This document shows, in pieces, positions 11,542 to 63,259 of a stretch of 64,000 bases of DNA; the stretch's first letter is position 1, and the number at the start of each line of letters is the position of its first letter. Location: the IMG/VR virus record IMGVR_UViG_3300026263_000200. One strand, written 5' to 3'. The notes under the pieces were generated by a model. That model saw nothing but the letters and a program-made list of their open reading frames with translations. It did not search any database and had not been told where the DNA came from. Made by a program: the position numbers and the translations under genes. This DNA comes from a virus.

Positions 11542-11563
11542 TAGGATACTCGTAGGTTTTACC

Positions 11564-11590
11564 CCTGGAAAACACCCAGGCATTTTTTTT
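11564..11590 (+). terminator. probable Rho-independent terminator
   Basis: CCTGG-N7-CCAGG followed by CA and T8. Confidence 0.55.
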
Positions 11591-11614
11591 GTTCAGGACC
11601 TTTTTCGTACAGAC

Positions 11615-11643
11615 TTGACTATTTTCGTGAAATGGTGTATATT
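11615..11643 (+). promoter_or_regulatory. sigma70-type promoter for the primase-nrd operon
   Basis: TTGACT-N17-TATATT. Confidence 0.7.
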
Positions 11644-11656
11644 ATGAGATAGTGTT

Positions 11657-12652
11657 ATGTCAAGTTTTATAGATTTAAAGTATATTAATGCTATCTCTTC
11701 AGCATTAAGTCAGTTTAAAAAGAAGACAGATTATCTTTTCAATTTCAGGTGTCCACATTGTGGAGACTCGCAGAAGAGTAAGACTAAAGCAAGAGCATAT
11801 CTTTATAGAGTAAAAAATGATATGTTCTTTAAATGCCACAATTGTGGTATGGGTCAGAATTTAGCAAATTTCATTAAATTCTTGGATCCTAAAAAATACG
11901 GAGAATACTTATTAGAGAGATACAAAGGATCGGCACCTTCCACGCCCCAACCTAAATTTGACTTTAAACCCACAAAATTTAAAGAAACAAATTTACTAGA
12001 TTCTTGTATTAAAGTAAGTACGTTAAAAGACGGACATCCTGTAAAGGAGTACGTAAAGAAAAGATTGATACCTCCACAATATTATGATATAATTTATTTT
12101 GTTGACAAATTTCATAATTTTGCCAATAAAGTGAAACCAGGAACTTTTAAAGAAAAATATGAACACCCTAGATTAATTATTCCTTTCTTTGATGTAACTG
12201 GTAAGTTGTTTGCATTTCAAGGCAGAGCATTTGGAAAAGAACAACCAAAATATATTACTATTAAACTTGATGAATCAAAACAAAAAGTATATGGACTTGA
12301 ACGTGTAAATTATCAAAAACATATTTACATAGTTGAAGGTCCACTTGATAGTTTGTTTTTAGATAATTGTTTAGCAGCAGGTGGTGCTGACTTAACATTG
12401 AGAGTGTCAAGTGACCAAGTTACATATATATTTGACAACGAACCTCGTAATAAAGAAATCATAAAAAGGATGTACGCAGTAGTTGAAAAGGATTATAATG
12501 TAGTAGTCTGGCCAAATGATGTGCAACTTAAAGATGTAAATGAAATGATAATGAATGGAATGAAAATAAGTGAACTAAAAGATATCATAAGTAATAATAC
12601 ATTTAGCAAATTAGAGGCATTAACGAAATTAAACTATTATAAAAAATGTTAG
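11657..12652 (+). CDS. gp61: DNA primase (T4 gp61-like)
   Basis: Zn finger FRCPHCGDSQKSKTKAR...CHNCG; TOPRIM motifs IVEGPLDSLF and FDNEPRN. Confidence 0.95.
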   Translation: MSSFIDLKYINAISSALSQFKKKTDYLFNFRCPHCGDSQKSKTKARAYLYRVKNDMFFKCHNCGMGQNLANFIKFLDPKKYGEYLLERYKGSAPSTPQPKFDFKPTKFKETNLLDSCIKVSTLKDGHPVKEYVKKRLIPPQYYDIIYFVDKFHNFANKVKPGTFKEKYEHPRLIIPFFDVTGKLFAFQGRAFGKEQPKYITIKLDESKQKVYGLERVNYQKHIYIVEGPLDSLFLDNCLAAGGADLTLRVSSDQVTYIFDNEPRNKEIIKRMYAVVEKDYNVVVWPNDVQLKDVNEMIMNGMKISELKDIISNNTFSKLEALTKLNYYKKC

Positions 12653-28080: not shown

Positions 28081-28876
28081 TATACCTTGGGATAAATGTT
28101 TAAGTAAGCAGTTGTTTCCTGCTATAGAAAAGGGTTGGACTGATTCAGATAAACCTATACATTTCTTTTGGGGACTTGGAAGTAAAAATATACCAGAGAT
28201 TGCAATGTGCGAAGCACAAGGTGATGAGTGGTGGTATGTAGATGTTGGTTATTTAACACAACAAATTACAAGATATCCAGAACCTATTATACACGATTAC
28301 GATAAGACATATTTTAGAATATGTAAAGGTAATTTACATACGATTAGGTGCAAAGTTGGACCAGGTGCAAGATTACAGAAACTAGAGCATCAAGGGATTG
28401 ATGTACAGTTTAAAGGGTGGAATACTGGAGAAACAACTCATATACTATTAGCACCTTCTTCTCAAACGGTAACCTACCATATTAATGGCATTAGTCAAGA
28501 TGATTGGATTAAACAGGTTACAGAAGAGATTAAACAACATACAGATATACCTATTAAGTTTAGAAACAAACCTAGACCAGGTAATGAGTGGTGGAAAACT
28601 GACATAAAAGATGATTTGAAAAATGCCCATTGTTTGGTAACTAATATGAGTTTAGGTACTGTTGACGCAATATTAAATCAAGTACCTGTTATATGCCATC
28701 AAAGAAACATTGCGTCATTTGTTTCATCAAAAGATATAAAGTATATTAAGAAACCTATGAGACCTGGAAGAAAAACTATAAATGAGTGGTTAAAAATGAT
28801 TGCAGAAAATCAATTTACAATAAAAGAAATTGAAGATGGAACTGCTTATAGAACATTACAGGAACAAAACGTATGA
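28055..28876 (+). CDS. putative glycan-modifying protein, paralog of 25798..26556
   Basis: YVDVGY, VTNMSLGTVDAILNQVPVI, AENQFTIKEIEDGTAY. Confidence 0.55.
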   Translation: MNRMIITHNIPWDKCLSKQLFPAIEKGWTDSDKPIHFFWGLGSKNIPEIAMCEAQGDEWWYVDVGYLTQQITRYPEPIIHDYDKTYFRICKGNLHTIRCKVGPGARLQKLEHQGIDVQFKGWNTGETTHILLAPSSQTVTYHINGISQDDWIKQVTEEIKQHTDIPIKFRNKPRPGNEWWKTDIKDDLKNAHCLVTNMSLGTVDAILNQVPVICHQRNIASFVSSKDIKYIKKPMRPGRKTINEWLKMIAENQFTIKEIEDGTAYRTLQEQNV

Positions 28877-29451
28877 TAATTAAACCATTTGGAGAAGAAG
28901 GCATTTCTATGTTGCAAGGCAATATGATAGACGTTCCTATAACAGATTATATTTGTAATTTGTTAAAAGAAGAAGGTGATGATATTGTTATAAAAGGAGA
29001 TTTTTTAAAAGAGATACAAAATGCAACTATTCAAAATGGAAAATTGAAAAGTGTTCCTCATAATGCAACAGTAGTTGATATTATTAATAAGATACAAAAC
29101 GAATTTTCAAAAAATAGAAAAGTAGTAGAAATATGGGCAGTTATAATGAGAGAAGGAGATTTCCATATGCTACATAACCATTCAAGTGGTATTCCTTCAG
29201 AACATTTAGATTACTTAATTGCTAATGATAAACCTGGTAGAGAAGCACCAGTAATATCTGGAGCTCTTTATCTAAAAGTGCCTGAAATGAAACCACCACA
29301 AGGTAATGTAAATTTTGTATCAAATGGTGAAGTGTTTAGTTGGACTCCAAAAGATGGAGATTACTTTGTTTGGCCGAGTCATTTAGTACACGGAGTTTAT
29401 CCTTTTAAAGGGTCAGGAAGTAGGATAATGATTTCTTGGAATAGTATATGA
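28873..29451 (+). CDS. putative 2OG-Fe(II) oxygenase
   Basis: HNH, SGALYL, WPSHLVHGV, RIMISWN. Confidence 0.75.
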   Translation: MIIKPFGEEGISMLQGNMIDVPITDYICNLLKEEGDDIVIKGDFLKEIQNATIQNGKLKSVPHNATVVDIINKIQNEFSKNRKVVEIWAVIMREGDFHMLHNHSSGIPSEHLDYLIANDKPGREAPVISGALYLKVPEMKPPQGNVNFVSNGEVFSWTPKDGDYFVWPSHLVHGVYPFKGSGSRIMISWNSI

Positions 29452-30125
29452 TAAATTTTTGCTGTGTATATTATGGAACAAAGTATTCATTAGATTATGT
29501 ACAAGTGCTATACAATATGGTACAACGACATTTAACCGTACCTCATAAGTTTATATGTTTTTCAGACCACGTAAAACCTCAAAAGATATTAAAAGGTAAT
29601 ATAGAGTTTAGAAAGTTTAGATTTCACGACTATAATGGTTGGTGGAATAAAATGCAACTTTTTAGTGAAGAAGCAGACCTAAAAGGACCTTGTTTATATA
29701 TGGATTTAGATGTAGTTATTTTAGATAACATTAATGAATTAGCGACATTTGGTGATGATATGACATTTGGTGTAATAAACGATTTCAACATATTGACAAA
29801 AGAGTATAATTCAAGTATAATGAAATTTAATAATGAAGTTGCAACAGATTTAGTATGGAAACCATTTCTACAACAAAAGACAGAATTGATGAAATTGCAA
29901 GGCGACCAAAACGCAATGTCCAAATTAGTTAAAGGTAGTCAATACCTAAAAGTTATGCCAGACGAATGGTCATATTCGTACAAATGGTTCAGCAGACAAG
30001 ACCCTAGATTTGATAAGAGTAAATGGACATTTGAAAAGAAAGAATCAGCCAAGGTTGCAGTATTTCACGGTACACCTTTACCACACGATTCAGACCAGGA
30101 TTGGGTCAAAAAAGAGTGGAATTAG
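29448..30125 (+). CDS. glycosyltransferase (GT-A)
   Basis: GTKYSLDYV, GWWNKMQLF, YMDLD, NSS, GDQ, VFHG. Confidence 0.8.
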   Translation: MINFCCVYYGTKYSLDYVQVLYNMVQRHLTVPHKFICFSDHVKPQKILKGNIEFRKFRFHDYNGWWNKMQLFSEEADLKGPCLYMDLDVVILDNINELATFGDDMTFGVINDFNILTKEYNSSIMKFNNEVATDLVWKPFLQQKTELMKLQGDQNAMSKLVKGSQYLKVMPDEWSYSYKWFSRQDPRFDKSKWTFEKKESAKVAVFHGTPLPHDSDQDWVKKEWN

Positions 30126-30139
30126 AACAAAACGAGAAC
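30125..30139 (+). promoter_or_regulatory. alphaproteobacterial LexA-type box GAAC-N7-GAAC
   Basis: GAAC AAAACGA GAAC; starts 56 nt before TTGACT. Confidence 0.6.
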
Positions 30140-30180
30140 AAATATCTCTAAAAATCGCATAAAATAAGTGTTTTTTTTTC

Positions 30181-30209
30181 TTGACTTTTAAGTAAAAAAC
30201 CTGTATAGT
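30181..30209 (+). promoter_or_regulatory. sigma70-type early promoter
   Basis: TTGACT-N17-TATAGT. Confidence 0.8.
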
Positions 30210-30220
30210 ATACACATACT

Positions 30221-30676
30221 ATGAAAAAAAACACTATGAACAAATCAAAAAAAGTTAAATTAAATGACGTTGACTATACTTTTAATGTAGTTTATTTAAG
30301 AGAATATATTGATCCAGATGACCAAGAATTCTTTTATGCATACGAAACTATCTATAGAAACGTTCCATATAAATTCAAAGACAAATTCAAAACAAAATCT
30401 ATGAAGATGAAAATTCTTAAATTTTGTGATTGGAATTATAAAGAACCTGCTGTTAACTTTCAAAACGTAACTAAAGTTGAATTAATAGACCAAGACGAAT
30501 ACTATAAAAATTATGAACAAGTATTTGGCGATACTGCCAAAGATAATAAAGATATGTTTAATGATTACGGTCAATCTTATGACAGACAATCTTTCAGAAA
30601 AGATTTTAATAAAGAATTAACATATAAATTAAACCCAATTAAGAAAAAAATAGAACAAATGAAAGGACTACACTAA
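30221..30676 (+). CDS. hypothetical early protein
   Basis: ORF track; first gene after the promoter. Confidence 0.65.
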   Translation: MKKNTMNKSKKVKLNDVDYTFNVVYLREYIDPDDQEFFYAYETIYRNVPYKFKDKFKTKSMKMKILKFCDWNYKEPAVNFQNVTKVELIDQDEYYKNYEQVFGDTAKDNKDMFNDYGQSYDRQSFRKDFNKELTYKLNPIKKKIEQMKGLH

Positions 30677-30867
30677 TGAGTAAAGTAAAACAATGGGCAG
30701 CAGACGTTGCCGAAAAAGCAGTTGATGATATTCTTACAAAAGTTAAGAATAAAATAATTGACTTAAAAACTGCTAAAGACGATATCTTAAAAATAGAAAA
30801 TCTTGCTTTAGTTGATATTGACGAAGATAATATAGATGAAGTATTAGAAATGGAGTTGAAAATATGA
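30676..30867 (+). CDS. hypothetical protein
   Basis: ORF track; coupled. Confidence 0.65.
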   Translation: MSKVKQWAADVAEKAVDDILTKVKNKIIDLKTAKDDILKIENLALVDIDEDNIDEVLEMELKI

Positions 30868-31331
30868 GCCAATTAACAGACGTATATGTAAATAAAGACG
30901 ATATCGGTAAAAACCTATATAGAAAAAAAACATACTATACATTATGCATAGAGCAAGATGTATTAGCAAAAGATAAAGATGAAGCAGATAAATTGCTTTC
31001 AGATTGCGGAATAGACCACGCAAAAATCAATAAAGACTTAACAGAAGAAAAAAACGGTGTTGAAACTTATATGACAGACGCTAACTATACAGATTCAGAT
31101 ACAACCAAGTATATTGCAAAAGTTGTTTATGATGACTATGACGGTTTAGAAAACGCCAAAGAAAACGGTGATGTTGAGTTAGATACTTATGCTTTAGAAG
31201 ATGATACAATTGATCCAGAAACAGGAGAGTGTATGAGTAAACCACTTGATGATTTACACGAAGCATTAAATCCAAATAACAAATATGTTTTAAAAGACGG
31301 TGAATTAAAAATCGTGAAAGAGAATCAATAA
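30864..31331 (+). CDS. acidic hypothetical protein
   Basis: ORF track; ATGA overlap. Confidence 0.65.
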   Translation: MSQLTDVYVNKDDIGKNLYRKKTYYTLCIEQDVLAKDKDEADKLLSDCGIDHAKINKDLTEEKNGVETYMTDANYTDSDTTKYIAKVVYDDYDGLENAKENGDVELDTYALEDDTIDPETGECMSKPLDDLHEALNPNNKYVLKDGELKIVKENQ

Positions 31332-31497
31332 TGCAAAGTGAACTATTATTATTGGGAGTGATTGGAATGCTTTTAACTATAATTGGATTCGGTATTGCTT
31401 ACCATATTGGAAGTAAATCAAATGAACCAGAAGTAAAATTAACAGAAGTACAAAAATCATTAAAAGATTTACATAACTTAAATGGAAAGGACGATTA

Positions 31498-31767
31498 ATG
31501 AAATATAATGAAGATAAAATATTAAAAGAAGTTTTAGACTATGTTAAAGGCACATACTCAAAACACTATTCTACTACTAAAGAAGGATTCCAAGTACAAG
31601 ATTTATTAAGACATTTAAAGATAGATAAAGATTTCAGTTTATCAAATGCAATTAAATACCTTTGCAGATACGGTAAAAAAGAAGGAAAAAACAAATTAGA
31701 TTTATATAAAGCAATACACTATATTGTATTGTTAATTAATAGTGAAGAAAATGAAAAAGAAAACTAA
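31498..31767 (+). CDS. DUF3310-family protein
   Basis: HYS...SNAIKYLCRYGKKEGKNKLDLYKAIHY. Confidence 0.8.
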   Translation: MKYNEDKILKEVLDYVKGTYSKHYSTTKEGFQVQDLLRHLKIDKDFSLSNAIKYLCRYGKKEGKNKLDLYKAIHYIVLLINSEENEKEN

Positions 31768-31794
31768 AAAACTTATATTAGAATTATTAGATTT

Positions 31795-32259
31795 TTGGCC
31801 AATGACAATAGTTGTGCCAATAATGATTATTTTAATTTTAACAGCAAATATATGGTAAGTAATAAAATTATATACAATAAAATGAATTTCTATTATGATG
31901 TAAATGATATGAACATATCAATTTACGGTAAAGATTGGAAACCAGTTGAGTATTTAAGTGATTCAGAAAGAAGAGAGAAAGTAAGACAGCATATATTAAA
32001 AAAAGACTTAACACAAAGAATAGGAGGAAAAAAGTATATGACATTATTAACAGAAAATCAAACAATCAACGGATTTGATAATACAGCAGATGTATTAATC
32101 TCTATTAAAGAGAACGTTGAAAACGGTAATAAAGATACAGCAATTGATATGCTAAATCAATTAATTGATAATGAGAAGTTAGAATCAGATATTGATGTTT
32201 CTATGAATTTAGAAAATGAGAGTTGTGATTGCTCTACTTGTAGAATTGGAAATAACTAA
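31795..32259 (+). CDS. hypothetical protein(s); strong internal RBS AGGAGG before the ATG at 32038
   Basis: ORF track; start uncertain. Confidence 0.5.
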   Translation: MANDNSCANNDYFNFNSKYMVSNKIIYNKMNFYYDVNDMNISIYGKDWKPVEYLSDSERREKVRQHILKKDLTQRIGGKKYMTLLTENQTINGFDNTADVLISIKENVENGNKDTAIDMLNQLIDNEKLESDIDVSMNLENESCDCSTCRIGNN

Positions 32260-32375
32260 AATGAGTGGAAACCACCCTATAGCAGACTATCAAAACACTT
32301 GGAAAAGCTCACCAGCGACCCTGCTAGAGCGTTGGAAATGCAGAAAAGTGAGTAAAATAGGGACTAATTTAGGGA

Positions 32376-32404
32376 TTGACATTAGCAACGATTTATGTTA
32401 TTAT
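32376..32404 (+). promoter_or_regulatory. sigma70-type promoter
   Basis: TTGACA-N17-TATTAT with an extended -10 TG. Confidence 0.75.
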
Positions 32405-32432
32405 TAATACAATTGAGAAAGGAAAATACATT

Positions 32433-32807
32433 ATGAGTACAGTAATATACAATAAAGAGAACATCTATAAAGAGTTTGATGTAGCAAAACAAAAAGACAT
32501 TGAACTATCAGACAAGAAAACACTAGAAGAAAAAGAGAACGATATCCATACAAACAGGTTACAGTTTTGTAAAGAACATAAAGAACTGAATGAGAAAGAC
32601 CCAGGATTGTATGATGTTGATATTAAGTGGGACAGTTTAATACTTGCCTACTCATCACCTAGTCCGAGAGACCATTTCTATAAAACAGTATTCGGTAGAA
32701 CTTATGCCGAACAAGTTGCCTTTGAAACTTCTGAATCAGAAGGAGATGACGGAGGAGAAGATTCGTATTATAGAAGTAGAAGAAAGAATAGAAACTACAA
32801 AAGATAA
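32433..32807 (+). CDS. hypothetical protein
   Basis: RBS GAAAGGA; ATG at 32433. Confidence 0.65.
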   Translation: MSTVIYNKENIYKEFDVAKQKDIELSDKKTLEEKENDIHTNRLQFCKEHKELNEKDPGLYDVDIKWDSLILAYSSPSPRDHFYKTVFGRTYAEQVAFETSESEGDDGGEDSYYRSRRKNRNYKR

Positions 32808-32826
32808 CATTAACAAAGAGGAGAAT

Positions 32827-33042
32827 ATGATGAAAACTTTGATGTCTATACTAGTATTAATTATACTATCAACTTCTGCTAACGCAGGAAAAGTTGAAGA
32901 TAAGATTAGTGCTGTAAATACGTGGTTAGCTAATGAGAAGCAAACTACTGTAGAATTTCAAAAAGTAAAATGGCAAGAAGGTAAAAACCAAATTGCTAGT
33001 ACTATTGCGAAATTTAAAAAAATGTTTAATTGGAGTAACTAA
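32827..33042 (+). CDS. small secreted protein
   Basis: RBS GAGGAG; signal peptide MMKTLMSILVLIILSTSANA. Confidence 0.65.
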   Translation: MMKTLMSILVLIILSTSANAGKVEDKISAVNTWLANEKQTTVEFQKVKWQEGKNQIASTIAKFKKMFNWSN

Positions 33043-33248
33043 TGTACGGAGATTTTGTTTGTACAAGTGCCAATGACGGTACACATTATTTCAGACCTGT
33101 AACTGCTAAAGCACATACGCTTTGGCAGGAAAAAGGTTTTAGTAAATATGTGATTGATAATAACGAAGACTATTACATTGTTAAGAGTGTTGATAGTCAG
33201 AAAATATGTAATGAGATACGCAAAAATAATTTGGATTTTACTAGTTAG
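33042..33248 (+). CDS. hypothetical protein
   Basis: ORF track; coupled. Confidence 0.6.
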   Translation: MYGDFVCTSANDGTHYFRPVTAKAHTLWQEKGFSKYVIDNNEDYYIVKSVDSQKICNEIRKNNLDFTS

Positions 33249-33699
33249 TTTATTATTAACTAATTGTGCTAACAGGTCACATACAGGTGCCGTGTTAGGT
33301 GCAGGAACAGGAACAGCAGTATGTTTAGAGTACATAGGAGATAATCCTTACTTAATTGCTACGTGTGCTGTTGGCGCCGCTTTTGCAGGTGCAGAAATTT
33401 TATATAAGAGTGATAAAGATGTTCACAATGCAGTATTTGTTGACCATTTGAATACAAGTGGTTCATCTTCATCTTATACAAATTGGTATAATGCAGAAAC
33501 AGGTAATAATGGAATTATACACATAACAAAATCTTATACTGTAGGTCCACTTAAATGTAAAGATTATGACCATACAGTTGATATAACTAGTCAATGGCCG
33601 TTAATTGGAATTGGTAATGTTAATAGAGAAATAGTGTTTGGAACTGCTTGTCAGTTGCCAGACGGTAGATGGATTGAAAAACCAGTAGGAGTGAATTAA
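33211..33699 (+). CDS. glycine-zipper lipoprotein resembling the Rickettsia 17-kDa surface antigen
   Basis: Lipobox LTNC; GAVLGAGTG; WYNAETGNNG...CKDY...GTACQLPDGRW. Confidence 0.8.
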   Translation: MRYAKIIWILLVSLLLTNCANRSHTGAVLGAGTGTAVCLEYIGDNPYLIATCAVGAAFAGAEILYKSDKDVHNAVFVDHLNTSGSSSSYTNWYNAETGNNGIIHITKSYTVGPLKCKDYDHTVDITSQWPLIGIGNVNREIVFGTACQLPDGRWIEKPVGVN

Positions 33700-33700
33700 T

Positions 33701-34201
33701 ATGGATCCAAAAAATTATAAAATTTATATGTATGCAACATTAATTATGATAACAGTATTGTTATGTATGGAAATGGCTTGGGGTTGTGTAGATTGTGATT
33801 TAAATAAAAAAGAATTTGAAAAAACTGCTCCAGTAATGGAAATAGAGTGGCATAATCCAGATGGAACTGTACACCGTAGTACTAAAGTTGTAGATGGTTC
33901 TCAAAAGATATTATATGACAATGTTAAACCAGTAACTAAAAACGATACTGACCAATTTTGTTATGTCAAAATTATTATTAAACAAGAAGCAAATGGAAAC
34001 ATTTCTAAAGAAGAGAAATTATATTGTTCCGATGGAAGAAGTGGTGTAGATACTCCTTCTTATTGGGAACTTTTTGCCCAGTTTTATTACCGTGATGTCT
34101 ATACACCAGAGTATTGTAGATATTATAGTCGTAAAAATCACGCTTTTAAATCGTACGGAAAAGTGTGTTTAAATGAGTACGGAGAATGGAAGGTAAAATA
34201 A
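33701..34201 (+). CDS. secreted Cys-containing hypothetical protein
   Basis: N-terminal hydrophobic segment; C-terminal CRYY...GKVCLNEYGEW resembles the tail of the preceding gene. Confidence 0.6.
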   Translation: MDPKNYKIYMYATLIMITVLLCMEMAWGCVDCDLNKKEFEKTAPVMEIEWHNPDGTVHRSTKVVDGSQKILYDNVKPVTKNDTDQFCYVKIIIKQEANGNISKEEKLYCSDGRSGVDTPSYWELFAQFYYRDVYTPEYCRYYSRKNHAFKSYGKVCLNEYGEWKVK

Positions 34202-34344
34202 TGATTAAAAATATAATCATAATTGCTCTCCTATTGGTTATTGTATATGGAGTTACTGCTGATGAATTTTTGAGCTATGCTCAATCCAGCGTTGACTTAT
34301 TGCAAGAACTATTATATAATGTACAAAGGAGTGTGAAAAACTAA
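34201..34344 (+). CDS. small TM protein (47 aa)
   Basis: MIKNIIIIALLLVIVYGVTADEFLSYAQ...; coupled on both sides. Confidence 0.55.
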   Translation: MIKNIIIIALLLVIVYGVTADEFLSYAQSSVDLLQELLYNVQRSVKN

Positions 34345-34967
34345 TGAACAAATACATTAAGATTTTATCAGTTGCTGTCTTTGGTCTATTGTTGACTAAT
34401 TGTGCAGGTAATTATAAAATCAAAAGTGAAAAAGGTAAGGTAGTTAATACTGTTCCAAAATGGTATATGGCTGATTTTTCTGAAACTAAAGCTTGTGATA
34501 TAGCAAGATTTGGTAAAGCGAAAGAAAAGCAATGTATATTTGGAGTTGGTACTAGCGTTTCACCAGACTTAAATCTCGCAATTGAGAAAGCTAAAATGAT
34601 AGCGAAAGCTGAATTAGCAGACATTATCAAAGGGGAGATGAACAAAGAGTCTAAACAGTTTATAACGGAGATTGGAAAATCTAATACGAAAACTGTTGTT
34701 AGTGAAGTAGAATCTGTATTGGTCAATATTATTAAAGATACACCAGTTAGAGGATATGAGATATTTGAGCAAGATGTAACCTTGACAAAGAACGGTTACT
34801 ATAGAGCTTGGATAGGTTTGAGATTGCCATTAGGTGAATATAATAAAATGTTCAACTATACAATTGAACAAGCTACAGACGCTTATAACTTAAAGTATCA
34901 CGCTAATAAGTCATTTGAGAAACTTATGAAAAAAGAAGAGGTTTCAGATGGACAAGTTAGTAATTAA
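34344..34967 (+). CDS. LPP20-like lipoprotein
   Basis: Lipobox LTNC; VPKWY; GVGTSVSPDLNLAIEKAKMIAKAELA. Confidence 0.7.
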   Translation: MNKYIKILSVAVFGLLLTNCAGNYKIKSEKGKVVNTVPKWYMADFSETKACDIARFGKAKEKQCIFGVGTSVSPDLNLAIEKAKMIAKAELADIIKGEMNKESKQFITEIGKSNTKTVVSEVESVLVNIIKDTPVRGYEIFEQDVTLTKNGYYRAWIGLRLPLGEYNKMFNYTIEQATDAYNLKYHANKSFEKLMKKEEVSDGQVSN

Positions 34968-35232
34968 AGATATCACAGTATATACGAAACAAAATTGTGT
35001 ATACTGTGTGAAGGCAAAGTCCCTTCTAAAGGGACTTGGTCTAACTTGGACGGAGAAGAAGTTAGAAGAATTTGCTTCTGTTGAAGCAATGATAGAGGAC
35101 ATTGGTAAAAAAGTAAGAGCAATGCCTCAAATAAAAATTGACGGTAAACTAGTCGGTGGATATAATCAACTTATAGAATATTTTAATAATAAAGGTTTAG
35201 TAAATTTTAAAGGTGAGATTGTCCGTGATTAA
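34948..35232 (+). CDS. glutaredoxin
   Basis: YTKQNCVYCVKAK, MPQI, GGY. Confidence 0.93.
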   Translation: MDKLVIKDITVYTKQNCVYCVKAKSLLKGLGLTWTEKKLEEFASVEAMIEDIGKKVRAMPQIKIDGKLVGGYNQLIEYFNNKGLVNFKGEIVRD

Positions 35233-35764
35233 AGATAAAGAGAAAAAAGGAAAGATAATTATATTTCCTGAAAACAGAATTAAAAAAAGAATTACAAAAC
35301 CACAAGAATCCCCATTTACAAAACGATTAAAAGAGCAACAAACTAGAGAGTTTATTGAACATAGTGTAGATGAAATTGGATTTGAATTATTAAGAAAATT
35401 TAGTGATATGGGTTTAAAGACTTCAAAGGAATCATTTACTAAAGACCTTGCGTTAGTTATTGATTGTATAAGAGGATTGATTTATAGAGATTTTGATATG
35501 GCACACGCCGCTCAATTAATGGCAAATAAAATGGTTGCAATAAAATTTAATAGAGGTGGTAAAGCAAGTGCCGCTAGGATAGACTATTCAGATTTTATGA
35601 AAGCAAAACCAAACAAACAAAGAAATATTTTTAATAAAGAATTTAAAGAAGAGTTAAATGATTTACAAGATGGATCAGATATGTTTGAATCTGATTTGGA
35701 TTTGAACGGTGATGATGATAATATCATCCCACCACCTTGGAACGGTAATGATGATAAAAAATAG
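35213..35764 (+). CDS. hypothetical protein
   Basis: KIIIFP motif; ORF track. Confidence 0.6.
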   Translation: MRLSVIKDKEKKGKIIIFPENRIKKRITKPQESPFTKRLKEQQTREFIEHSVDEIGFELLRKFSDMGLKTSKESFTKDLALVIDCIRGLIYRDFDMAHAAQLMANKMVAIKFNRGGKASAARIDYSDFMKAKPNKQRNIFNKEFKEELNDLQDGSDMFESDLDLNGDDDNIIPPPWNGNDDKK

Positions 35765-35900
35765 TTTAATGATATTAATAATGCTTACTTTTATGGGTTG
35801 TGCAAAAGATAAACCTACACTCAATTCAATGGAGAAATTTTTTGATTGTTTAGGGGATAGTAGTAAGTGTGAGAAATTAAAGAATTCCGTAAAGGAGTAG
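35709..35900 (+). CDS. small lipoprotein
   Basis: ILIMLTFMGC lipobox-like; start probably near 35748. Confidence 0.5.
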   Translation: MMMIISSHHLGTVMMIKNSLMILIMLTFMGCAKDKPTLNSMEKFFDCLGDSSKCEKLKNSVKE

Positions 35901-35945
35901 TCCAATGCAGACTTTAAAAAGCAAAACAAAGGAGGAAGAAACATT

Positions 35946-36242
35946 ATGTTTTTTTCAAAAAGTAAGGTTGCAGTAGCAACTAAAGGCAGAAAAAGACTGT
36001 CTAAAACTCAAAAAGTATTAAACTTATTTGAGAAAGGTGAACCAGTTTCTTGGAAACATTTAAGAAACAGATATGACCTAATATCACCAAGAGCGATGGT
36101 TGACAAACTACGTTCAAAAGGTCATATGATTTATGTAAATAAATCATCTTCAGGTACATCTTATAGATTGGGTACTCCTACAAAAGCTATTATAGCTGCT
36201 GGGATAACTAAACTATACGGTACTGAATACGCATATAACTAA
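35946..36242 (+). CDS. winged helix-turn-helix protein
   Basis: LSKTQKVLNLFEKG...SPRAMVDKLRSKGHMIY...YRLG; RBS GGAGG. Confidence 0.7.
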   Translation: MFFSKSKVAVATKGRKRLSKTQKVLNLFEKGEPVSWKHLRNRYDLISPRAMVDKLRSKGHMIYVNKSSSGTSYRLGTPTKAIIAAGITKLYGTEYAYN

Positions 36243-36307
36243 TTGCGTAATTGAATCGTAACCAATACGATTGACACAGGCGACCATATATAAAATTCGC
36301 CTGTGTC
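36228..36307 (+). other. three tandem stem-loops after the wHTH gene
   Basis: TACGCA/TGCGTA; AATCGTA/TACGATT; GACACAGGCGA/TCGCCTGTGTC (perfect 11 bp). Confidence 0.65.
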
Positions 36308-36474
36308 TTAATAAAAGGAAATTATGATAGAAGAAGAACTTAAATTAAGTAAAGAACAAAAAGAGTGGATAAAAGAGTTTATAAAAAAACACACAGCAAG
36401 AGGTTCACATAGGTGGGCATTTTGGTGTGAAGGAATTATAATAGGATTAATAATAGGAATGATAATATAATATT

Positions 36475-36810
36475 ATGAAAGAAGATAAATTTGTAAAATT
36501 AAACGATAAAATAAAAGCATTAAATTCAACAAGAGTATTTAAAAAGATAACACCAAAGTATGACCTATCTTGGTATATAAAATGGGTAGCAAGTTTAATG
36601 TTAATGGTTGCAGTTTGCTTTAGAGCAGCTGACTTTAATCATATGTTTGATTTATATTTTAGTTTTTGTGGAACTACTGGTTGGTTAGTAGTTGGATTTT
36701 TATGGCACGATAGAGCATTAATATATTTAAATGCTGTATTATCAACAGTATTATTAATAGGTATATTAAAAGAAATAACAACTTGTTCTACTTGTATGAT
36801 ACCATTATAA
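36475..36810 (+). CDS. small multi-TM membrane protein
   Basis: SWYIKWVAS...GWLVVGFLWHDRALIYLN. Confidence 0.75.
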   Translation: MKEDKFVKLNDKIKALNSTRVFKKITPKYDLSWYIKWVASLMLMVAVCFRAADFNHMFDLYFSFCGTTGWLVVGFLWHDRALIYLNAVLSTVLLIGILKEITTCSTCMIPL

Positions 36811-36811
36811 T

Positions 36812-37696
36812 ATGAAGACAACTGATTTAACACCAGTAGAAATTCATAATAAAATTTATTACAAAAGGGACGATTATTACACTCCTTATGGTAAAGAAAA
36901 TGTTAATGGAGGAAAAACAAGACAGGCAATTTGTTTGTTTAGAGAATTAAAAGATGAGATTAAAAACAAATATAATGGTGGAGTAGTTACAGGTTCATCT
37001 GTTAATAGTCCACAAGCACCTATCATAGCGGCAGTTGCTCAAGACTTTGGTTTTAAATGTGTCATAGGTGTGGGTGGTACAACACCTAAAACAATAGATA
37101 CCCACCATATGATGAGATTATCAAGACACTATGGTGCTGATATTGAAAATGTTGCAGGTCACGGATATACAGTTGCAATAGATAGTGGATTAAAAAAGAA
37201 AGTAATATCTAAAAAAGGTTATATGTTAATTAAATTTGGTAATAGTGCTGCTACAAATCCTGAATCAATATTTGATAGTGTTGCTAATCAAGTTGAAAAC
37301 ATACCTGACAAGTTAGATAACCTAGTAATTGCAGTAGGTAGTGGTATACAGTTTGCAGGTATAATAAAAGGTATAGAGAAGTTTAAGAAAAAGGTAAAAA
37401 GAATTATAGGGGTCACGTTTGTTGACCGTAGTAAAAAGATTGATGAGTACTTAAATCAATTTAGTAATCTTGAATCAGGTTTTAAGAAGTTTCAAGATTA
37501 TGAAATGTACAAAACACCTTTACCATATTCAAAATCAGTATGGGAAGATGTGGGTAATGGCTTTATTGACGATATATACGAAGGTAAAGCACATAAATGG
37601 ATGAGAGAGAATATAGATACTACAAAAGAAAAGACGCTATTTTGGAGTATAGGGAGAAGATTAACAGCGGAACAAGTAGATAAGTTATATAAATAG
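36812..37696 (+). CDS. PLP-dependent enzyme, fold type II (ACC deaminase / D-cysteine desulfhydrase-like)
   Basis: LTPVE...KRDD...GGKTR; SVNSPQ; VGSG; DDIYEGK. Confidence 0.8.
   Translation: MKTTDLTPVEIHNKIYYKRDDYYTPYGKENVNGGKTRQAICLFRELKDEIKNKYNGGVVTGSSVNSPQAPIIAAVAQDFGFKCVIGVGGTTPKTIDTHHMMRLSRHYGADIENVAGHGYTVAIDSGLKKKVISKKGYMLIKFGNSAATNPESIFDSVANQVENIPDKLDNLVIAVGSGIQFAGIIKGIEKFKKKVKRIIGVTFVDRSKKIDEYLNQFSNLESGFKKFQDYEMYKTPLPYSKSVWEDVGNGFIDDIYEGKAHKWMRENIDTTKEKTLFWSIGRRLTAEQVDKLYK
37688..37695 (+). promoter_or_regulatory. T4 late promoter TATAAATA
   Basis: Exact consensus upstream of the gene at 37730. Confidence 0.65.
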
Positions 37697-37729
37697 ATAT
37701 ATGATTAAATTAATAAATTGGAGTATAAA

Positions 37730-38254
37730 ATGGCAGAAGAACCAAAACAACATCCATCATTAATTAGTAAGTCTTCAATGCAAGCAATGGCTGCTACAAG
37801 CGGTTCACAGGACTTGTTATTTTCAGAAGTCTTAACTAAAGTAAATAACGCAAAAGATAAAGCTAAAAAGATAGAGGTTTTAAAAAAATATAACCATCCA
37901 TCTTTGAGAAGTATATTAAAAGGATCATTTGATCCTAGTATTGAGTGGGAATTACCAGAAGGCACACCACCTTTTATGGAAAATCCAGCACCGAAAGGTA
38001 GCGAACATACAATGCTTAAAACTGAAGCAAAACGTTTGTGGCATTTTATTAAAGGCGCAGATACTAAAACTACAAAAACTCAAAAAGAAACTATGTTTAT
38101 CCAAATGTTAGAAGGATTACATAGTGATGAAGCAAGATTATTGCTTAATACAAAAGATAAAACTTTACATAGAGTTTATAAAGGGTTAAGCGACTCTGTA
38201 GTTAAAGAAGCGTTTGGTTGGAATGATTTGTACCAAAAATTAGAACAAAAATAG
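37730..38254 (+). CDS. conserved T4-like phage hypothetical protein
   Basis: FDPSIEWELPEGTPPF, ETMFIQMLEGLH; RBS GGAG. Confidence 0.75.
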   Translation: MAEEPKQHPSLISKSSMQAMAATSGSQDLLFSEVLTKVNNAKDKAKKIEVLKKYNHPSLRSILKGSFDPSIEWELPEGTPPFMENPAPKGSEHTMLKTEAKRLWHFIKGADTKTTKTQKETMFIQMLEGLHSDEARLLLNTKDKTLHRVYKGLSDSVVKEAFGWNDLYQKLEQK

Positions 38255-38257
38255 AAC
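38243..38257 (+). promoter_or_regulatory. alphaproteobacterial LexA-type box GAAC-N7-GAAC
   Basis: GAAC AAAAATA GAAC; starts 56 nt before TTGACT. Confidence 0.6.
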
Positions 38258-38265
38258 ACTTTGTT

Positions 38266-38294
38266 AAAAAACCCTTATAAAACAAGGGTTTTTT
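38266..38294 (+). terminator. terminator-like hairpin
   Basis: AAAAAACCCTT-ATAAAAC-AAGGGTTTTTT. Confidence 0.55.
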
Positions 38295-38298
38295 GTGC

Positions 38299-38327
38299 TT
38301 GACTTTCCTTGTGGATTTGTGTATAAT
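38299..38327 (+). promoter_or_regulatory. sigma70-type early promoter
   Basis: TTGACT-N17-TATAAT with a TG extension. Confidence 0.85.
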
Positions 38328-38367
38328 AGACACATATAAACAATAAATATTAGGAGAGAAATATATT

Positions 38368-38697
38368 ATGAAAAAAGTGATGTTTATTATATTATTGAAT
38401 TTAGCATTATGGTTTGGACTAACAAGTCTATCCAATGTTGCTAATGCAAGTGAATATAATAAAGCAGTTATAGCACACGTTATCAAAGAAAATGTGAGTG
38501 GTAACGGTGTAGACCATACTGCTTTAATGGAGCAAGAACTACACAGGTTAGTATACGTTATGATAAATGAATTTAGTGGCGTATTACAAGCACACCTACC
38601 AAATATACTAGATAGTCTTGCTAGTGAAATCAGACAAAAAAATGATAAAGAGTTTAAATGTGCTCTTTTAAAAGGTTCAAATTATGAATGTGATTGA
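38368..38697 (+). CDS. secreted hypothetical protein
   Basis: RBS AGGAG; signal peptide ending ANA. Confidence 0.7.
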   Translation: MKKVMFIILLNLALWFGLTSLSNVANASEYNKAVIAHVIKENVSGNGVDHTALMEQELHRLVYVMINEFSGVLQAHLPNILDSLASEIRQKNDKEFKCALLKGSNYECD

Positions 38698-44894: not shown

Positions 44895-45296
44895 ATGTTA
44901 AAATACTTAATATCAATAATATTTGCAACAGCACTCTTAATGAGTCCTGTTGTTGGAGCAGTATCAGATTCACCAACTCCTGATACAATTGAACCTTTAC
45001 AACCTGAAGCACAACCAAAACTTTATTGGATGCAAATGCCAGTAATGTGTGGTCAGCAAGTCTATATTGAAGAATATTTAAAGACATATAAATTTAATAT
45101 GGCTAATATGTCTGTTGGTAAAGTTGGTGCAAGGGAAGATGGTGAGATAGTCTATTATGTTACCTATTGGGTGTCAGAAGATTTTAAACAATCAATAGCA
45201 GTAGTAACTAATATGAAAGGTACGGAATCTTGTATGATGTACAAGTCGTTTAATTTACAATGGACAGAACCTCCAAAACCAAAAACTGATTTATAA
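44895..45296 (+). CDS. secreted hypothetical protein
   Basis: Signal peptide; PVMCG...ESC. Confidence 0.65.
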   Translation: MLKYLISIIFATALLMSPVVGAVSDSPTPDTIEPLQPEAQPKLYWMQMPVMCGQQVYIEEYLKTYKFNMANMSVGKVGAREDGEIVYYVTYWVSEDFKQSIAVVTNMKGTESCMMYKSFNLQWTEPPKPKTDL

Positions 45297-45311
45297 TGAA
45301 TTTGACGTTGA

Positions 45312-45551
45312 AGGGTAGATAATAATTAGTGAGGACGTGGGTGCGATTCCCACCACCTCCACCAATTCAAAACACATTTTTGTGTGCTTTAAGGGGGTGA
45401 GTTAGATTCGACTACTAACTAAAACTATCTGGAGTTAAATCGCTGACAGCGTACTGTTAATTTTAAATGGCGAAGGAAACTTTGCTCTTGCTGCCTAGTT
45501 AATAGGTAACGGCGTTTGTGTAGTTTTCGTGGCAACAGAAAAATTACACAC
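45312..45551 (+). ncRNA. ssrA: circularly permuted two-piece tmRNA (alphaproteobacterial type)
   Basis: Acceptor piece with T-arm GTGGG-TGCGATT-CCCAC and CACCTCCACCA (ends 45364); intervening hairpin; coding piece starting GGGGGTGA...GATTCGAC (45393); G3:U70 pair; tag GEGNFALAA-stop at 45469-45498; terminal hairpin containing GGCAACAGAA. Confidence 0.92.
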
Positions 45552-45580
45552 TTTACATTTGCTAATAAATATGTTATAGT
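45552..45580 (+). promoter_or_regulatory. sigma70-type promoter for gp33-thyX-gp59
   Basis: TTTACA-N17-TATAGT. Confidence 0.65.
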
Positions 45581-45586
45581 AACACA

Positions 45587-45802
45587 ATGAACTCAAAAGA
45601 ATTTTCACTAATAATAGAGGACATAGTAAAGAAGCATAAAGAACTATCATATGTGGATGCTATTGTCAAATATTGTGATGATAACAATATTGAAATTGAA
45701 ACTACAGCACGTTTAATTACAAAACAACTCAAAGAAAAAATACAACATCAATCAGCACAACTAAACCTGTTAAAAGGTGGTAAACCTGGAATGCTACCAT
45801 AA
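45587..45802 (+). CDS. gp33: late promoter transcription coactivator (T4 gp33-like)
   Basis: FSLIIEDIV...SYVDAIVKYCDDNNIEIE...LKEKI...LNLLK. Confidence 0.85.
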   Translation: MNSKEFSLIIEDIVKKHKELSYVDAIVKYCDDNNIEIETTARLITKQLKEKIQHQSAQLNLLKGGKPGMLP

Positions 45803-61695: not shown

Positions 61696-61822
61696 TATGA
61701 TAACAACTGAAAGAATCTCGGAGAATCGCAAAATTTTTGGGTTCGCTAACGCTAGACGTGTATGGCAACCATTACAGCAGGCATTTATAGAGAATACGAC
61801 AGGTTAATCACAATGAATATAA

Positions 61823-61837
61823 GAACAAACTACGAAC
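61823..61837 (+). promoter_or_regulatory. alphaproteobacterial LexA-type box GAAC-N7-GAAC
   Basis: GAAC AAACTAC GAAC upstream of TTGACA. Confidence 0.5.
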
Positions 61838-61855
61838 AAATACGAGCATTGCCTA

Positions 61856-61884
61856 TTGACACCGTGAGTGGAATAGTGTATAAC
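61856..61884 (+). promoter_or_regulatory. sigma70-type promoter inside the late cluster
   Basis: TTGACA-N17-TATAAC. Confidence 0.55.
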
Positions 61885-62188
61885 GCAGTTTTACTATGTA
61901 ATAACGCAGATGAACTGAGCAATCCACATCAAGGTCGCCAGGCACACTATGGTATGAGTGCGAAGCCATCCAGGTGTCCGACAGTAATGTTGTTTCGGAA
62001 TATGTTATTAGGTATATTTCTACCTTTTACATATCTTACGCAAAGGGTCGCAAGAGGTACGCAAACCCGCCTGCGTAAAGATAATATTACACGCTATCCT
62101 CACACGAAGGTGCGTAAAGGTATTCTAAATAGTCTTGAAATGCGTAAGTCGTGTTCTTTAAAAGAAAAACAATATGGGAAAAAACTAA

Positions 62189-63259
62189 ATGGCTGACAAT
62201 AATTTTTTAGGGTTTAATAACTTTATCTGGTTTACTGGCGTTGTTGAAGATAGAAACGATCCTCACAAAGTAGGCCGAGTGCGAGTGCGTTGCGTGGGCA
62301 TACATACACACGACAAAGAAGTTTTGCCAACTGCTGACTTGCCTTGGGCGCAAGTGATACTGCCAGTTACATCACCAGGCATTTCAGGTTTAGGTTCATC
62401 GCCAAGTTTTCTATTACAAGGCAGTTGGGTCTTCGGTTACTTTAGAGATGGCACGAACTGTCAAGAACCTTGCGTAATAGGTTCTCTACCTGGGCGACCA
62501 GTTGAAACGGCTAATCCTGAAAAAGGTTTTTATGATCCAGATGGCATTTATCCTACATATGTTTCTGATAGTGATGTGAATATGTTGGCGACCAATGATG
62601 TTAATACGCATCCACATTTAGAGGCACGTAGTAATGTCGCAACAGGTATTGCCACAGCAGACTTTAACGCAACAACAAATGCCAAAGGCGACCAGATAGC
62701 CGCTTCAGATGGCACGATATGGAATCAGCCAGCGATTACCTATAATGCAACTTACCCTTACAACAAAGTTTATGAAAGTGAAGCGGGCCACATTTTTGAA
62801 GTAGATGATACGCCTGGCGCAGAAAGAATTTACGAAAGCCATTTTAGAGGCACGTCAAGAGAAATTGATCCTGTCGGTAATATTACTTACATTAACACTT
62901 ATGACAAATATGAATTAACAACTGGACACCAACGTTACAGTATCGGCGGCAATAGTGACATTACTATAGATGGTCGCCATAAGATTTACATTAACAAGAG
63001 AGGTATGCCAGGCAACAACTATGACATACAGGTCGGCCCGAATGCAAACATCAACATACAAGTAGATAAAGGCAACATCAATCTAGTGACCGTTGATGGA
63101 GATGTAAATATGAATGTTGGTGGCAATTACAATCTAAAAGTAAAAGGTGATTATTATAGTGATATAGAAGGCAGTAAGAATGAAACTATTGCAGGCAGTA
63201 AAATATCAAATACAACTCAAAGTGTATTTCATAGAGGTTACACAATTGATTTAAACTAA
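62189..63259 (+). CDS. gp5: baseplate hub / central spike (T4 gp5-like, no lysozyme domain)
   Basis: OB fold (WFTGVVEDRNDP..GRVRVR, LPWA, WVFGYF.DG); YPYN.VYESEAGH..EVDDTPGAERI; beta-helix repeats. Confidence 0.92.
   Translation: MADNNFLGFNNFIWFTGVVEDRNDPHKVGRVRVRCVGIHTHDKEVLPTADLPWAQVILPVTSPGISGLGSSPSFLLQGSWVFGYFRDGTNCQEPCVIGSLPGRPVETANPEKGFYDPDGIYPTYVSDSDVNMLATNDVNTHPHLEARSNVATGIATADFNATTNAKGDQIAASDGTIWNQPAITYNATYPYNKVYESEAGHIFEVDDTPGAERIYESHFRGTSREIDPVGNITYINTYDKYELTTGHQRYSIGGNSDITIDGRHKIYINKRGMPGNNYDIQVGPNANINIQVDKGNINLVTVDGDVNMNVGGNYNLKVKGDYYSDIEGSKNETIAGSKISNTTQSVFHRGYTIDLN

Follow-up and report, generated by a model that had tools for sequence, protein, structure and literature searches.

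T4-like phages carry promoter-early stem-loops (PeSLs), composite elements in which a stem-loop is followed by an A/T-rich tract, a sigma70-like early promoter, a Shine-Dalgarno sequence and an ATG (Arbiol 2010 PMC2839356; Comeau 2014 PMC4122927). In alphaproteobacteria such as Caulobacter, Rhodobacter, and Sinorhizobium, the LexA motif is the direct repeat GTTC-N7-GTTC (PMC3323433, PMC9578287), which reads GAAC-N7-GAAC on the opposite strand. Here, we analyzed a viral stretch of 64,000 nucleotides, IMG/VR record IMGVR_UViG_3300026263_000200 (the window), in which two PeSL-like cassettes each begin with a GAAC-N7-GAAC box. The cassettes of the window have a PeSL-like composite structure, with a clear stem-loop in cassette 2 and a decayed one in cassette 1, are likewise repeated in the genome, and border blocks of small open reading frames (ORFs). 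However, the described PeSLs contain no site for a host regulator, whereas a subset of those in pelagimyophages, T4-like phages of SAR11, has the LexA-type box on the upstream side.

LexA is described as having been co-opted by temperate phages and mobile elements, with CTXphi, GIL01, and coliphage 186 among the examples (Fornelos 2016 as cited in PMC9437464; GIL01 in PMC4551915). As in these systems, host SOS boxes lie here in phage DNA; there, they tie phage transcription to DNA damage. The boxes of the temperate systems overlap the promoters of the lysis-lysogeny switch, whereas those of the window are remote from promoters. Downstream of boxed cassettes we found small unassigned ORFs, a membrane protein, and a peptidase, and no box overlapping the promoter of a switch gene; the relatives available in culture have been described as lytic and T4-like, with no known lysogeny, no search having been aimed at lysogeny genes. 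Cyanomyophages have genes controlled by the host regulator PhoB. Host regulators are also read during lytic growth at the Spo0A sites of phi29 and the CtrA sites of alphaproteobacterial phages (PMC9437464). In all these cases, host-regulator sites in phage DNA let the phage sense the state of the host; here, by contrast, the candidate regulator is LexA, the signal would be DNA damage, and no phenotype is known. Literature searches on LexA with Pelagibacter, SAR11, or pelagiphage returned no paper describing such boxes in pelagiphages or other lytic T4-like phages.

We suggest that the boxes are copies of the host LexA operator carried on PeSL-like cassettes, and that LexA may act on the adjacent early units from upstream; our rough probability for this reading as a whole is 0.5.

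LexA operators of SAR11 and matching boxes in pelagimyophages

The window can be assigned to a pelagimyophage, since its homologue of gp5 is 59% identical to that of Pelagibacter phage Mosig EXVC030M, its NrdA is 83% identical to the one of Mosig and 78% to that of HTVC008M, and its gene order is that of the Mosig minus strand. Megablast of window positions 28-40 kb against phage records gave no match, and the relatives of the window were reached via protein similarity. One of them, G006 (loci L310-L318), is closely related to the window and collinear with it at 85-90% nucleotide identity; it is a complete IMG/VR genome of 177 kb that has terminal repeats.

The genes lexA, recA, and umuDC are present in SAR11 (PMC12753301, PMC2864753). 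Pelagibacter genomes, reached via the PstS gene of Mosig, were searched for SOS genes. lexA was found in all 121 Pelagibacterales genomes sampled, in 114 of them above the curated cut-off; this tally counts one unpublished genome (G089), whose sequence was not used. Upstream of lexA, GAAC-N7-GAAC is present in 35 of 35 Pelagibacterales genomes as (A/G)GAAC-N5-TAGAAC(A/G), in the sense orientation and 30-48 nt before the start. The umuD genes, verified as Peptidase_S24, have AGAACAAA(A/G/T)(C/T)AAGAACA adjoining the start in 25 of 25 cases, and recA is preceded by AGAACAAAATGTGTACA (GAAC-N7-GTAC) in five of five genomes. Further intergenic boxes (G001/G004; L297/L306, L296/L304) lie between nrdA and the gene for phosphoglucomutase/phosphomannomutase (PGM/PMM), and at one unassigned locus ca. 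2.3 kb from pstS, where the 15-mer is identical to the lexA operator. By this comparison, the SAR11 SOS box is the direct repeat GAAC-N7-GAAC, extended to AGAAC-N6-AGAACA. It provides a comparative-genomic definition of a small predicted LexA regulon composed of lexA, umuDC, recA, the nrdA-adjacent site, and the unassigned locus. The first-pass annotation of the window had named GAAC-N7-GAAC as the alphaproteobacterial LexA operator, and the operators derived independently from lexA, umuD, and recA of Pelagibacterales match it.

The phage boxes share with the alphaproteobacterial operator the tetranucleotides, the spacing, and the direct-repeat form, and with the operators of the host itself also the extended consensus and the GTAC variant. 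In particular, the host umuD 15-mer, GAACAAAACAAGAAC, is found identically at Mosig 13985, at HTVC008M 133406, and in orthologues of box 1 (L124, L131, L133, L137), and box 1 of the window differs from it in one spacer base. Phage variants with a GTAC half-site (L157, L174) have their parallel in the recA operator of the host. A transferred fragment of a host promoter was considered and rejected, as the similarity to the host umuD region ends at the operator and 2-3 flanking bases.

Because the raw motif count fails to separate pelagimyophages from cyanomyophages, we used the extended motif and a 21-nt matrix derived from 37 distinct host sites, which score 17.0-26.9 bits; order-2 Markov simulations served as the null. 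At a cutoff of at least 17 bits, there is one match in the window (0.13 expected), four in G006 (0.2), two in Mosig (0.13), and two in HTVC008M (0.4), and none in the cyanomyophages P-RSM1, S-SSM4, and DSL-LC03 (0.13, 0.13, and 0.27). For the three independent pelagimyophages, G006, Mosig, and HTVC008M, this amounts to eight matches vs. 0.73 expected (Poisson 1e-6), six of which lie at a boundary between gene end, hairpin, and early promoter, that is, in at most 4% of the genome (binomial ∼1e-7). Similarly, AGAAC-N6-AGAACA occurs 11 times in the three pelagimyophages vs. two for the reversed control, and once vs. two in the three cyanomyophages. Box 1 of the window falls just under the weakest host site, and its orthologues score 21.5-23.5 bits. 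These comparisons provide good support for regarding the phage boxes as copies of the LexA operator of the host.

Within the 64 kb of the window, GAAC-N7-GAAC is enriched over a shuffled background: it occurs seven times vs. 1.13 expected, a count reached in none of 100 dinucleotide shuffles, and the composition-matched reversed pattern CAAG-N7-CAAG matches once. In and beside the 26 intergenic regions, which comprise 4.4% of the window, only boxes 1 and 2 score at least 5 bits. A third box suggested at 61823 (Table 1) exists as a motif. However, it is situated inside an ORF and lacks both the layout of the cassettes and a hairpin, and the window copy scores below 12 bits. The ORF is real, as its differences from G006 are synonymous or conservative; no homologue was found at the same place in Mosig, and the site is comparable in close relatives only. 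At the other box-like site, 28848, coding and site conservation are inseparable. The 2OG-Fe(II) oxygenase gene at 28873-29451 is absent from the collinear G006, and the indel begins directly after this site. An exact-pattern scan of IMG/VR with AGAACAAAANNAGAACA hit >117 unrelated contigs; the pattern is too A-rich for specificity, and these loci were not used.

No LexA-type DNA-binding domain was found in the three complete pelagimyophage genomes (Mosig, HTVC008M, G006). For this reason, host LexA is favored as the reader of the boxes. We consider its binding to them likely. Alternatively, repeats spaced by 11 bp could be recognized by a phage protein or by another host regulator, e.g., of the OmpR/PhoB type, the SOS likeness being convergent or incidental. 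Direct repeats with an 11-bp period are indeed typical of response regulators, a phased upstream position would fit an activator better than LexA, and many nearby phage ORFs have no assigned function. Still, a different reader seems improbable, as the match to host lexA, umuD, and recA includes flanking bases and the same GAAC/GTAC half-site variation, no LexA-like domain was found in the phages, and no other candidate reader was identified.

Boxed cassettes in the window and in related phages

The two boxed intergenic regions had been annotated as sharing an exact layout, and we could verify both the coordinates and the elements (Table 1). Counted from the first base of the repeat (30125 and 38243), ATAAAA follows at +34 (30159, 38277) and TTGACT at +56 (30181, 38299), then a 17-nt spacer, the -10 box, and ACACATA; a Shine-Dalgarno sequence and an ATG complete each cassette after the A/T-rich tract and the promoter. 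The cassettes are paralogous over the full length, including the hairpin loop ATAAAAY and the promoter, have the common block AATTAGAACAAAAnnAGAACA, and bracket an 8-kb run of ∼25 small ORFs without assigned function. The first G of box 1 is the last base of the upstream stop codon TAG (30123-30125); in cassette 2, the stop codon TAG of the DUF6433 gene (38252-38254) falls within the box. In cassette 1, the terminator of cassette 2 is present as a decayed copy, a position at which relatives retain a CCC/GGG stem. Folding of the cassettes predicted no RNA structure involving the box. The gene next to cassette 2 on the downstream side is also present in Mosig (Mosig_00161). A third such cassette, at 11542-11656 of the window, has no box. 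PeSL copies are repeated in hyperplastic regions, adjacent to indels that distinguish close relatives; here, the indels between the window and G006 are situated inside the 8-kb run bracketed by the two cassettes and at 28882, not at the cassettes.

Table 1. Features of the boxed cassettes and other box-like sites in the window (bits, score with the host-operator matrix).
Feature	Position	Strand	Description
Upstream gene, cassette 1	29448-30125	+	Glycosyltransferase-like, phrog_1962; final gene of the glycan-modification block
LexA-type box 1, TTAGAACAAAACGAGAACAAA	30122-30142	+	GAAC-N7-GAAC at 30125-30139 (GAACAAAACGAGAAC); 16.3 bits
Degenerate hairpin, loop ATAAAAT, then T-run	30150-30180	+	Fold -5 kcal/mol, z = -0.54, not above shuffles
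Sigma70-like early promoter, TTGACT-N17-TATAGT	30181-30209	+	10/12 consensus matches
First gene downstream of cassette 1	30221-30676	+	Opens the 8-kb run of small ORFs; no family found
Upstream gene, cassette 2	37718-38254	+	DUF6433 / phrog_461
LexA-type box 2, TTAGAACAAAAATAGAACACT	38240-38260	+	GAAC-N7-GAAC at 38243-38257 (GAACAAAAATAGAAC); 20.5 bits
Intrinsic-terminator-like hairpin, AAAAAACCCTT-ATAAAAC-AAGGGTTTTTT	38266-38294	+	Fold -12.5 kcal/mol, z = -2.15
Sigma70-like early promoter, TTGACT-N17-TATAAT	38299-38327	+	11/12 consensus matches
First gene after cassette 2	38368-38697	+	Small protein, signal-peptide-like N-terminus
Candidate extra box, ATAGAACATTACAGGAACAAA	28848-28868	+	Gene junction, without promoter; 15.9 bits (17.5 in G006)
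Third GAAC-N7-GAAC of the first-pass annotation	61823-61837	+	Codons 3-8 of ORF 61762-62196, late tail-gene region, upstream of gp5

Boxes are kept at matching boundaries in related phages. Mosig has four GAAC-N7-GAAC sites, three of them just past a stop codon and before an early promoter, and one site is the orthologue of box 2. HTVC008M has eight, four of them with the cassette layout; the one at 133406 is at the end of a block of glycan genes, as is box 1 in the window. The box before a peptidase gene is common to HTVC008M 87259 and Mosig 13985 despite different upstream genes. The hairpins between box and promoter in several relatives (Mosig 13950, HTVC008M 87280 and 133425, L147, L161, L165) are G+C-rich, with a palindromic core GGTGYGNC...GNCRCACC; they have no T-run directly after them and may be more than simple terminators.

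The end of the DUF6433 gene was compared in 80 IMG/VR relatives with 60-93% protein identity, whose 120 nt around the stop codon represent 53 distinct versions. Forward GAAC-N7-GAAC is present in 36 of these, GTTC-N7-GTTC in the 3' arm of the hairpin in nine, and GTAC half-sites in three, while five have nothing. The register of box and stop shifts between TAGAAC, TAG-AGAAC, and TAA-AGAAC, with the box after or before the stop, and the spacer is variable. Because of these shifts, the repeat is conserved as DNA and not as the C-terminus of a protein; with the shifting register and the use of both TAA and TAG stops, we rejected the idea that the site at 38243 is conserved through coding constraint.

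The nine GTTC-N7-GTTC versions form a second clade (L140, L163, L166, L175, L177, L179, L184, L189, L193) with no forward box downstream of the DUF6433 gene. Instead, they have GTTCACCCTTTGTTC, an opposite-orientation repeat that is the 3' arm of the terminator hairpin and scores 8.6-13.1 bits.

Elsewhere the box is always on the sense strand, between stop codon and hairpin, as would also be expected of an RNA element, i.e., an A-rich repeat at the 3' end of the upstream unit that acts in the mRNA in processing, in stability, or as a protein-binding site. This is highly improbable: the second clade has the repeat in the opposite orientation at the same place, Mosig 90683 and G006 56678 are upstream of units diverging from the neighboring genes, the host copies are promoter-operator DNA, and no predicted structure includes the box.

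The boxes could also simply ride on duplicated or recombined PeSL-type cassettes, the GAAC repeat being read by no protein. The two cassettes of the window are indeed paralogs along their whole length, PeSLs are known as repeated terminator/promoter modules of T4-like phages (PMC4122927, PMC2839356), and one indel relative to G006 begins beside the box-like site 28848. However, in distant phages the half-sites alone persist while spacer, flanks, hairpin, and distance change; the cassette at 11542-11656 and most cassettes elsewhere have no box; and the identity with host operators would be left unexplained. Homology of the cassettes as the whole explanation is thus very improbable. The architecture had earlier been called fixed, which is true of the two paralogous cassettes of the window and of close relatives, but not as a general rule, as the distance to the promoter varies elsewhere. 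It is largely a PeSL-type terminator/early-promoter cassette with an added box.

An additional arrangement of GAAC words was found in Mosig at 121157-121190 on the minus strand. Here, three words with exact 11-bp spacing (GAACAAAAATAGAACAATTAGAGAAC) are situated inside a coiled-coil ORF, and the triplet is kept in relatives (L139 3981, L183 1932, L148 540, L170 2911). This 11-bp period cannot be the result of codon periodicity.

Position relative to the promoter and possible action of LexA

The order of elements is constant: gene end, box, hairpin, A/T-rich tract, promoter. From the start of the box to the -35 hexamer, the distance is 56 nt in both cassettes of the window and 25-117 nt across 52 distinct cassettes, with clusters at ∼25, 44, 55, 65, 76, 85, 96, 107, and 117 nt. 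In the host, by contrast, LexA sites overlap the promoter or abut the start. The first-pass annotation doubted simple repression because the boxes are well upstream of -35; this doubt is borne out, with the hairpin in between, and at such distances occlusion of the promoter is unlikely. Across 23 cassette families, the Rayleigh test yields a period of 10.25 bp (R = 0.65, p ∼1e-5), reached by none of 5000 random sets. Helical phasing of the box relative to -35 is therefore suggestive, though not proven. If transcription starts 35 nt past the beginning of the -35 hexamer, the box centers would be at about -53, -72, -84, -94, -105, and beyond, on the same face as classical upstream activator sites.

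In 11 of the 52 cassettes, all with at least 76 nt between box and -35, we found a perfect IHF consensus WATCAANNNNTTR (AATCAACGATTTA/G on the minus strand), as compared to 0.8% in shuffles. It starts 51-52 nt before -35 in eight of the 11 cassettes, and 41 or 62 nt before it in the others. These cassettes are interrelated (e.g., L134, L147, L150, L154, L139, and HTVC008M 87259), and the cassettes of the window itself lack the consensus. Of the three DNABII genes in Pelagibacter, none passes the curated cut-off for ihfA, which among the controls is passed by E. coli alone.

In the proposed mechanism, host LexA would bind the entering phage DNA at the boxes and, from its upstream, same-face position, would act on the adjacent early promoter by modulation, by activation, or as a barrier between transcription units. 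RecA-triggered cleavage of LexA would remove the factor, so that a few early operons would be coupled to host DNA damage. A cis effect on the neighboring early unit is favored because order and orientation are constant and the distances may be phased; the chances that LexA binding acts in this way seem to us about even. A more specific version is tentative: a strictly lytic T4-like phage might use LexA as an upstream, phased, class-I-like activator or boundary element and at the same time drain it. An IHF-type bend would perhaps assist in the long cassettes, expression of a defined subset of early operons would differ between SAR11 cells without damage and those in the SOS-induced state, and the replicated sites would drain LexA, switching on host repair and translesion genes for the phage.

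Several observations weigh against an action of LexA from upstream. A canonical operator would be placed differently, as here the box precedes a terminator hairpin far from -35, and the promoters that follow the boxes are close to consensus and require no activator. Only a minority of the promoter-like sites in closed-frame regions are boxed, one to four per genome, and most early promoters have no box. In addition, boxes have been gained or lost among lineages, as there is none at the Mosig orthologue of cassette 1 or at the peptidase gene of G006. The phasing weakens when the families are collapsed to 12 distance classes (R 0.61, reached by 8% of random sets with the period scanned), and distance steps of ∼10 bp could stem from A-tract indels in 10-bp units. 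Finally, the A-rich sense strand promotes GAAC-type words, and by raw GAAC-N7-GAAC count the eight sites of HTVC008M compare with 0-8 in cyanophages, so that only the extended motif separates the two groups.

The main alternative to a cis effect is titration, which is plausible. The boxes would bind LexA as a sponge and release host recA, umuDC, and possibly nrdA from repression in the absence of damage: high-affinity sites multiplied by replication would drain a small pool of LexA, e.g., aiding repair or replication of UV-damaged phage DNA, and the boxes would be in non-coding gaps merely for lack of other room. GAAC-N7-GAAC is rare in the host, with only 7-15 copies per genome of 1.0-1.5 Mb, of which ∼4-5 are intergenic operators, and it is ∼2.3-fold under-represented (54 vs. 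126 for the reversed control in five genomes), so that a phage genome adds as many sites as the host has. The phage boxes resemble the best host operators, and some box-like sites are off promoters, namely the gene junction at 28848 and the triple GAAC within an ORF (Mosig 121171 and relatives). The host box between nrdA and the PGM/PMM gene also fits a sponge, as does the increased expression of SOS genes during infection by one pelagiphage (PMC12753301). However, the latter is a podophage, and the induction may reflect mere DNA damage. Moreover, a sponge has no need for constant order, constant orientation, or helical phasing, and there are just two to four strong sites per genome, which are not clustered. 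We therefore regard titration as the sole role of the boxes as rather unlikely. By one route or the other, the phage probably reads or disturbs the SOS state of its host.

Genome context and implications

The G+C content of the window is ∼31%, and its plus strand holds nearly all genes. These include the T4-type baseplate hub (gp5), a tail protein, NrdA, sugar-modifying enzymes, and a permuted tmRNA. The latter was predicted by ARAGORN as a two-piece molecule with the tag GEGNFALAA at 45269-45589 (plus strand) and is syntenic with the SsrA annotated in Mosig at 111467-111805. Its region is flanked by two similar promoter-like sequences with TTGCTAATA, at ∼43974 and ∼45555. ARAGORN also reported a 91-nt tRNA-Thr(tgt) at 11915-12005 on the minus strand, antisense within the primase-like ORF 11657-12652, which is probably a false positive. 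Intergenic words TATAAATA, similar to T4-type late promoters, are found before structural and other late genes at ∼6170, 49340, 58290, and 63440.

SAR11 is the commonest bacterium of the ocean, and in surface waters, where UV damage occurs every day, few biological entities are as abundant as SAR11 and its phages; hardly anything is known of the regulation of transcription in pelagiphages. SOS boxes were known before from temperate phages; we know of no earlier description of such boxes in lytic T4-like phages or in a remote, possibly phased position. The claim can be tested with the cultured phages HTVC008M and Mosig and the host HTCC1062. If LexA binds the boxes, early expression of pelagimyophages or the host SOS response would depend on the state of DNA damage, and the outcome of infection, the diel production of viruses, and viral decay and repair in sunlit water would be affected. 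The more specific reading with phased LexA, if true, would mean that SOS is sensed without lysogeny in a virus-host pair that ranks among the most abundant of the sea.

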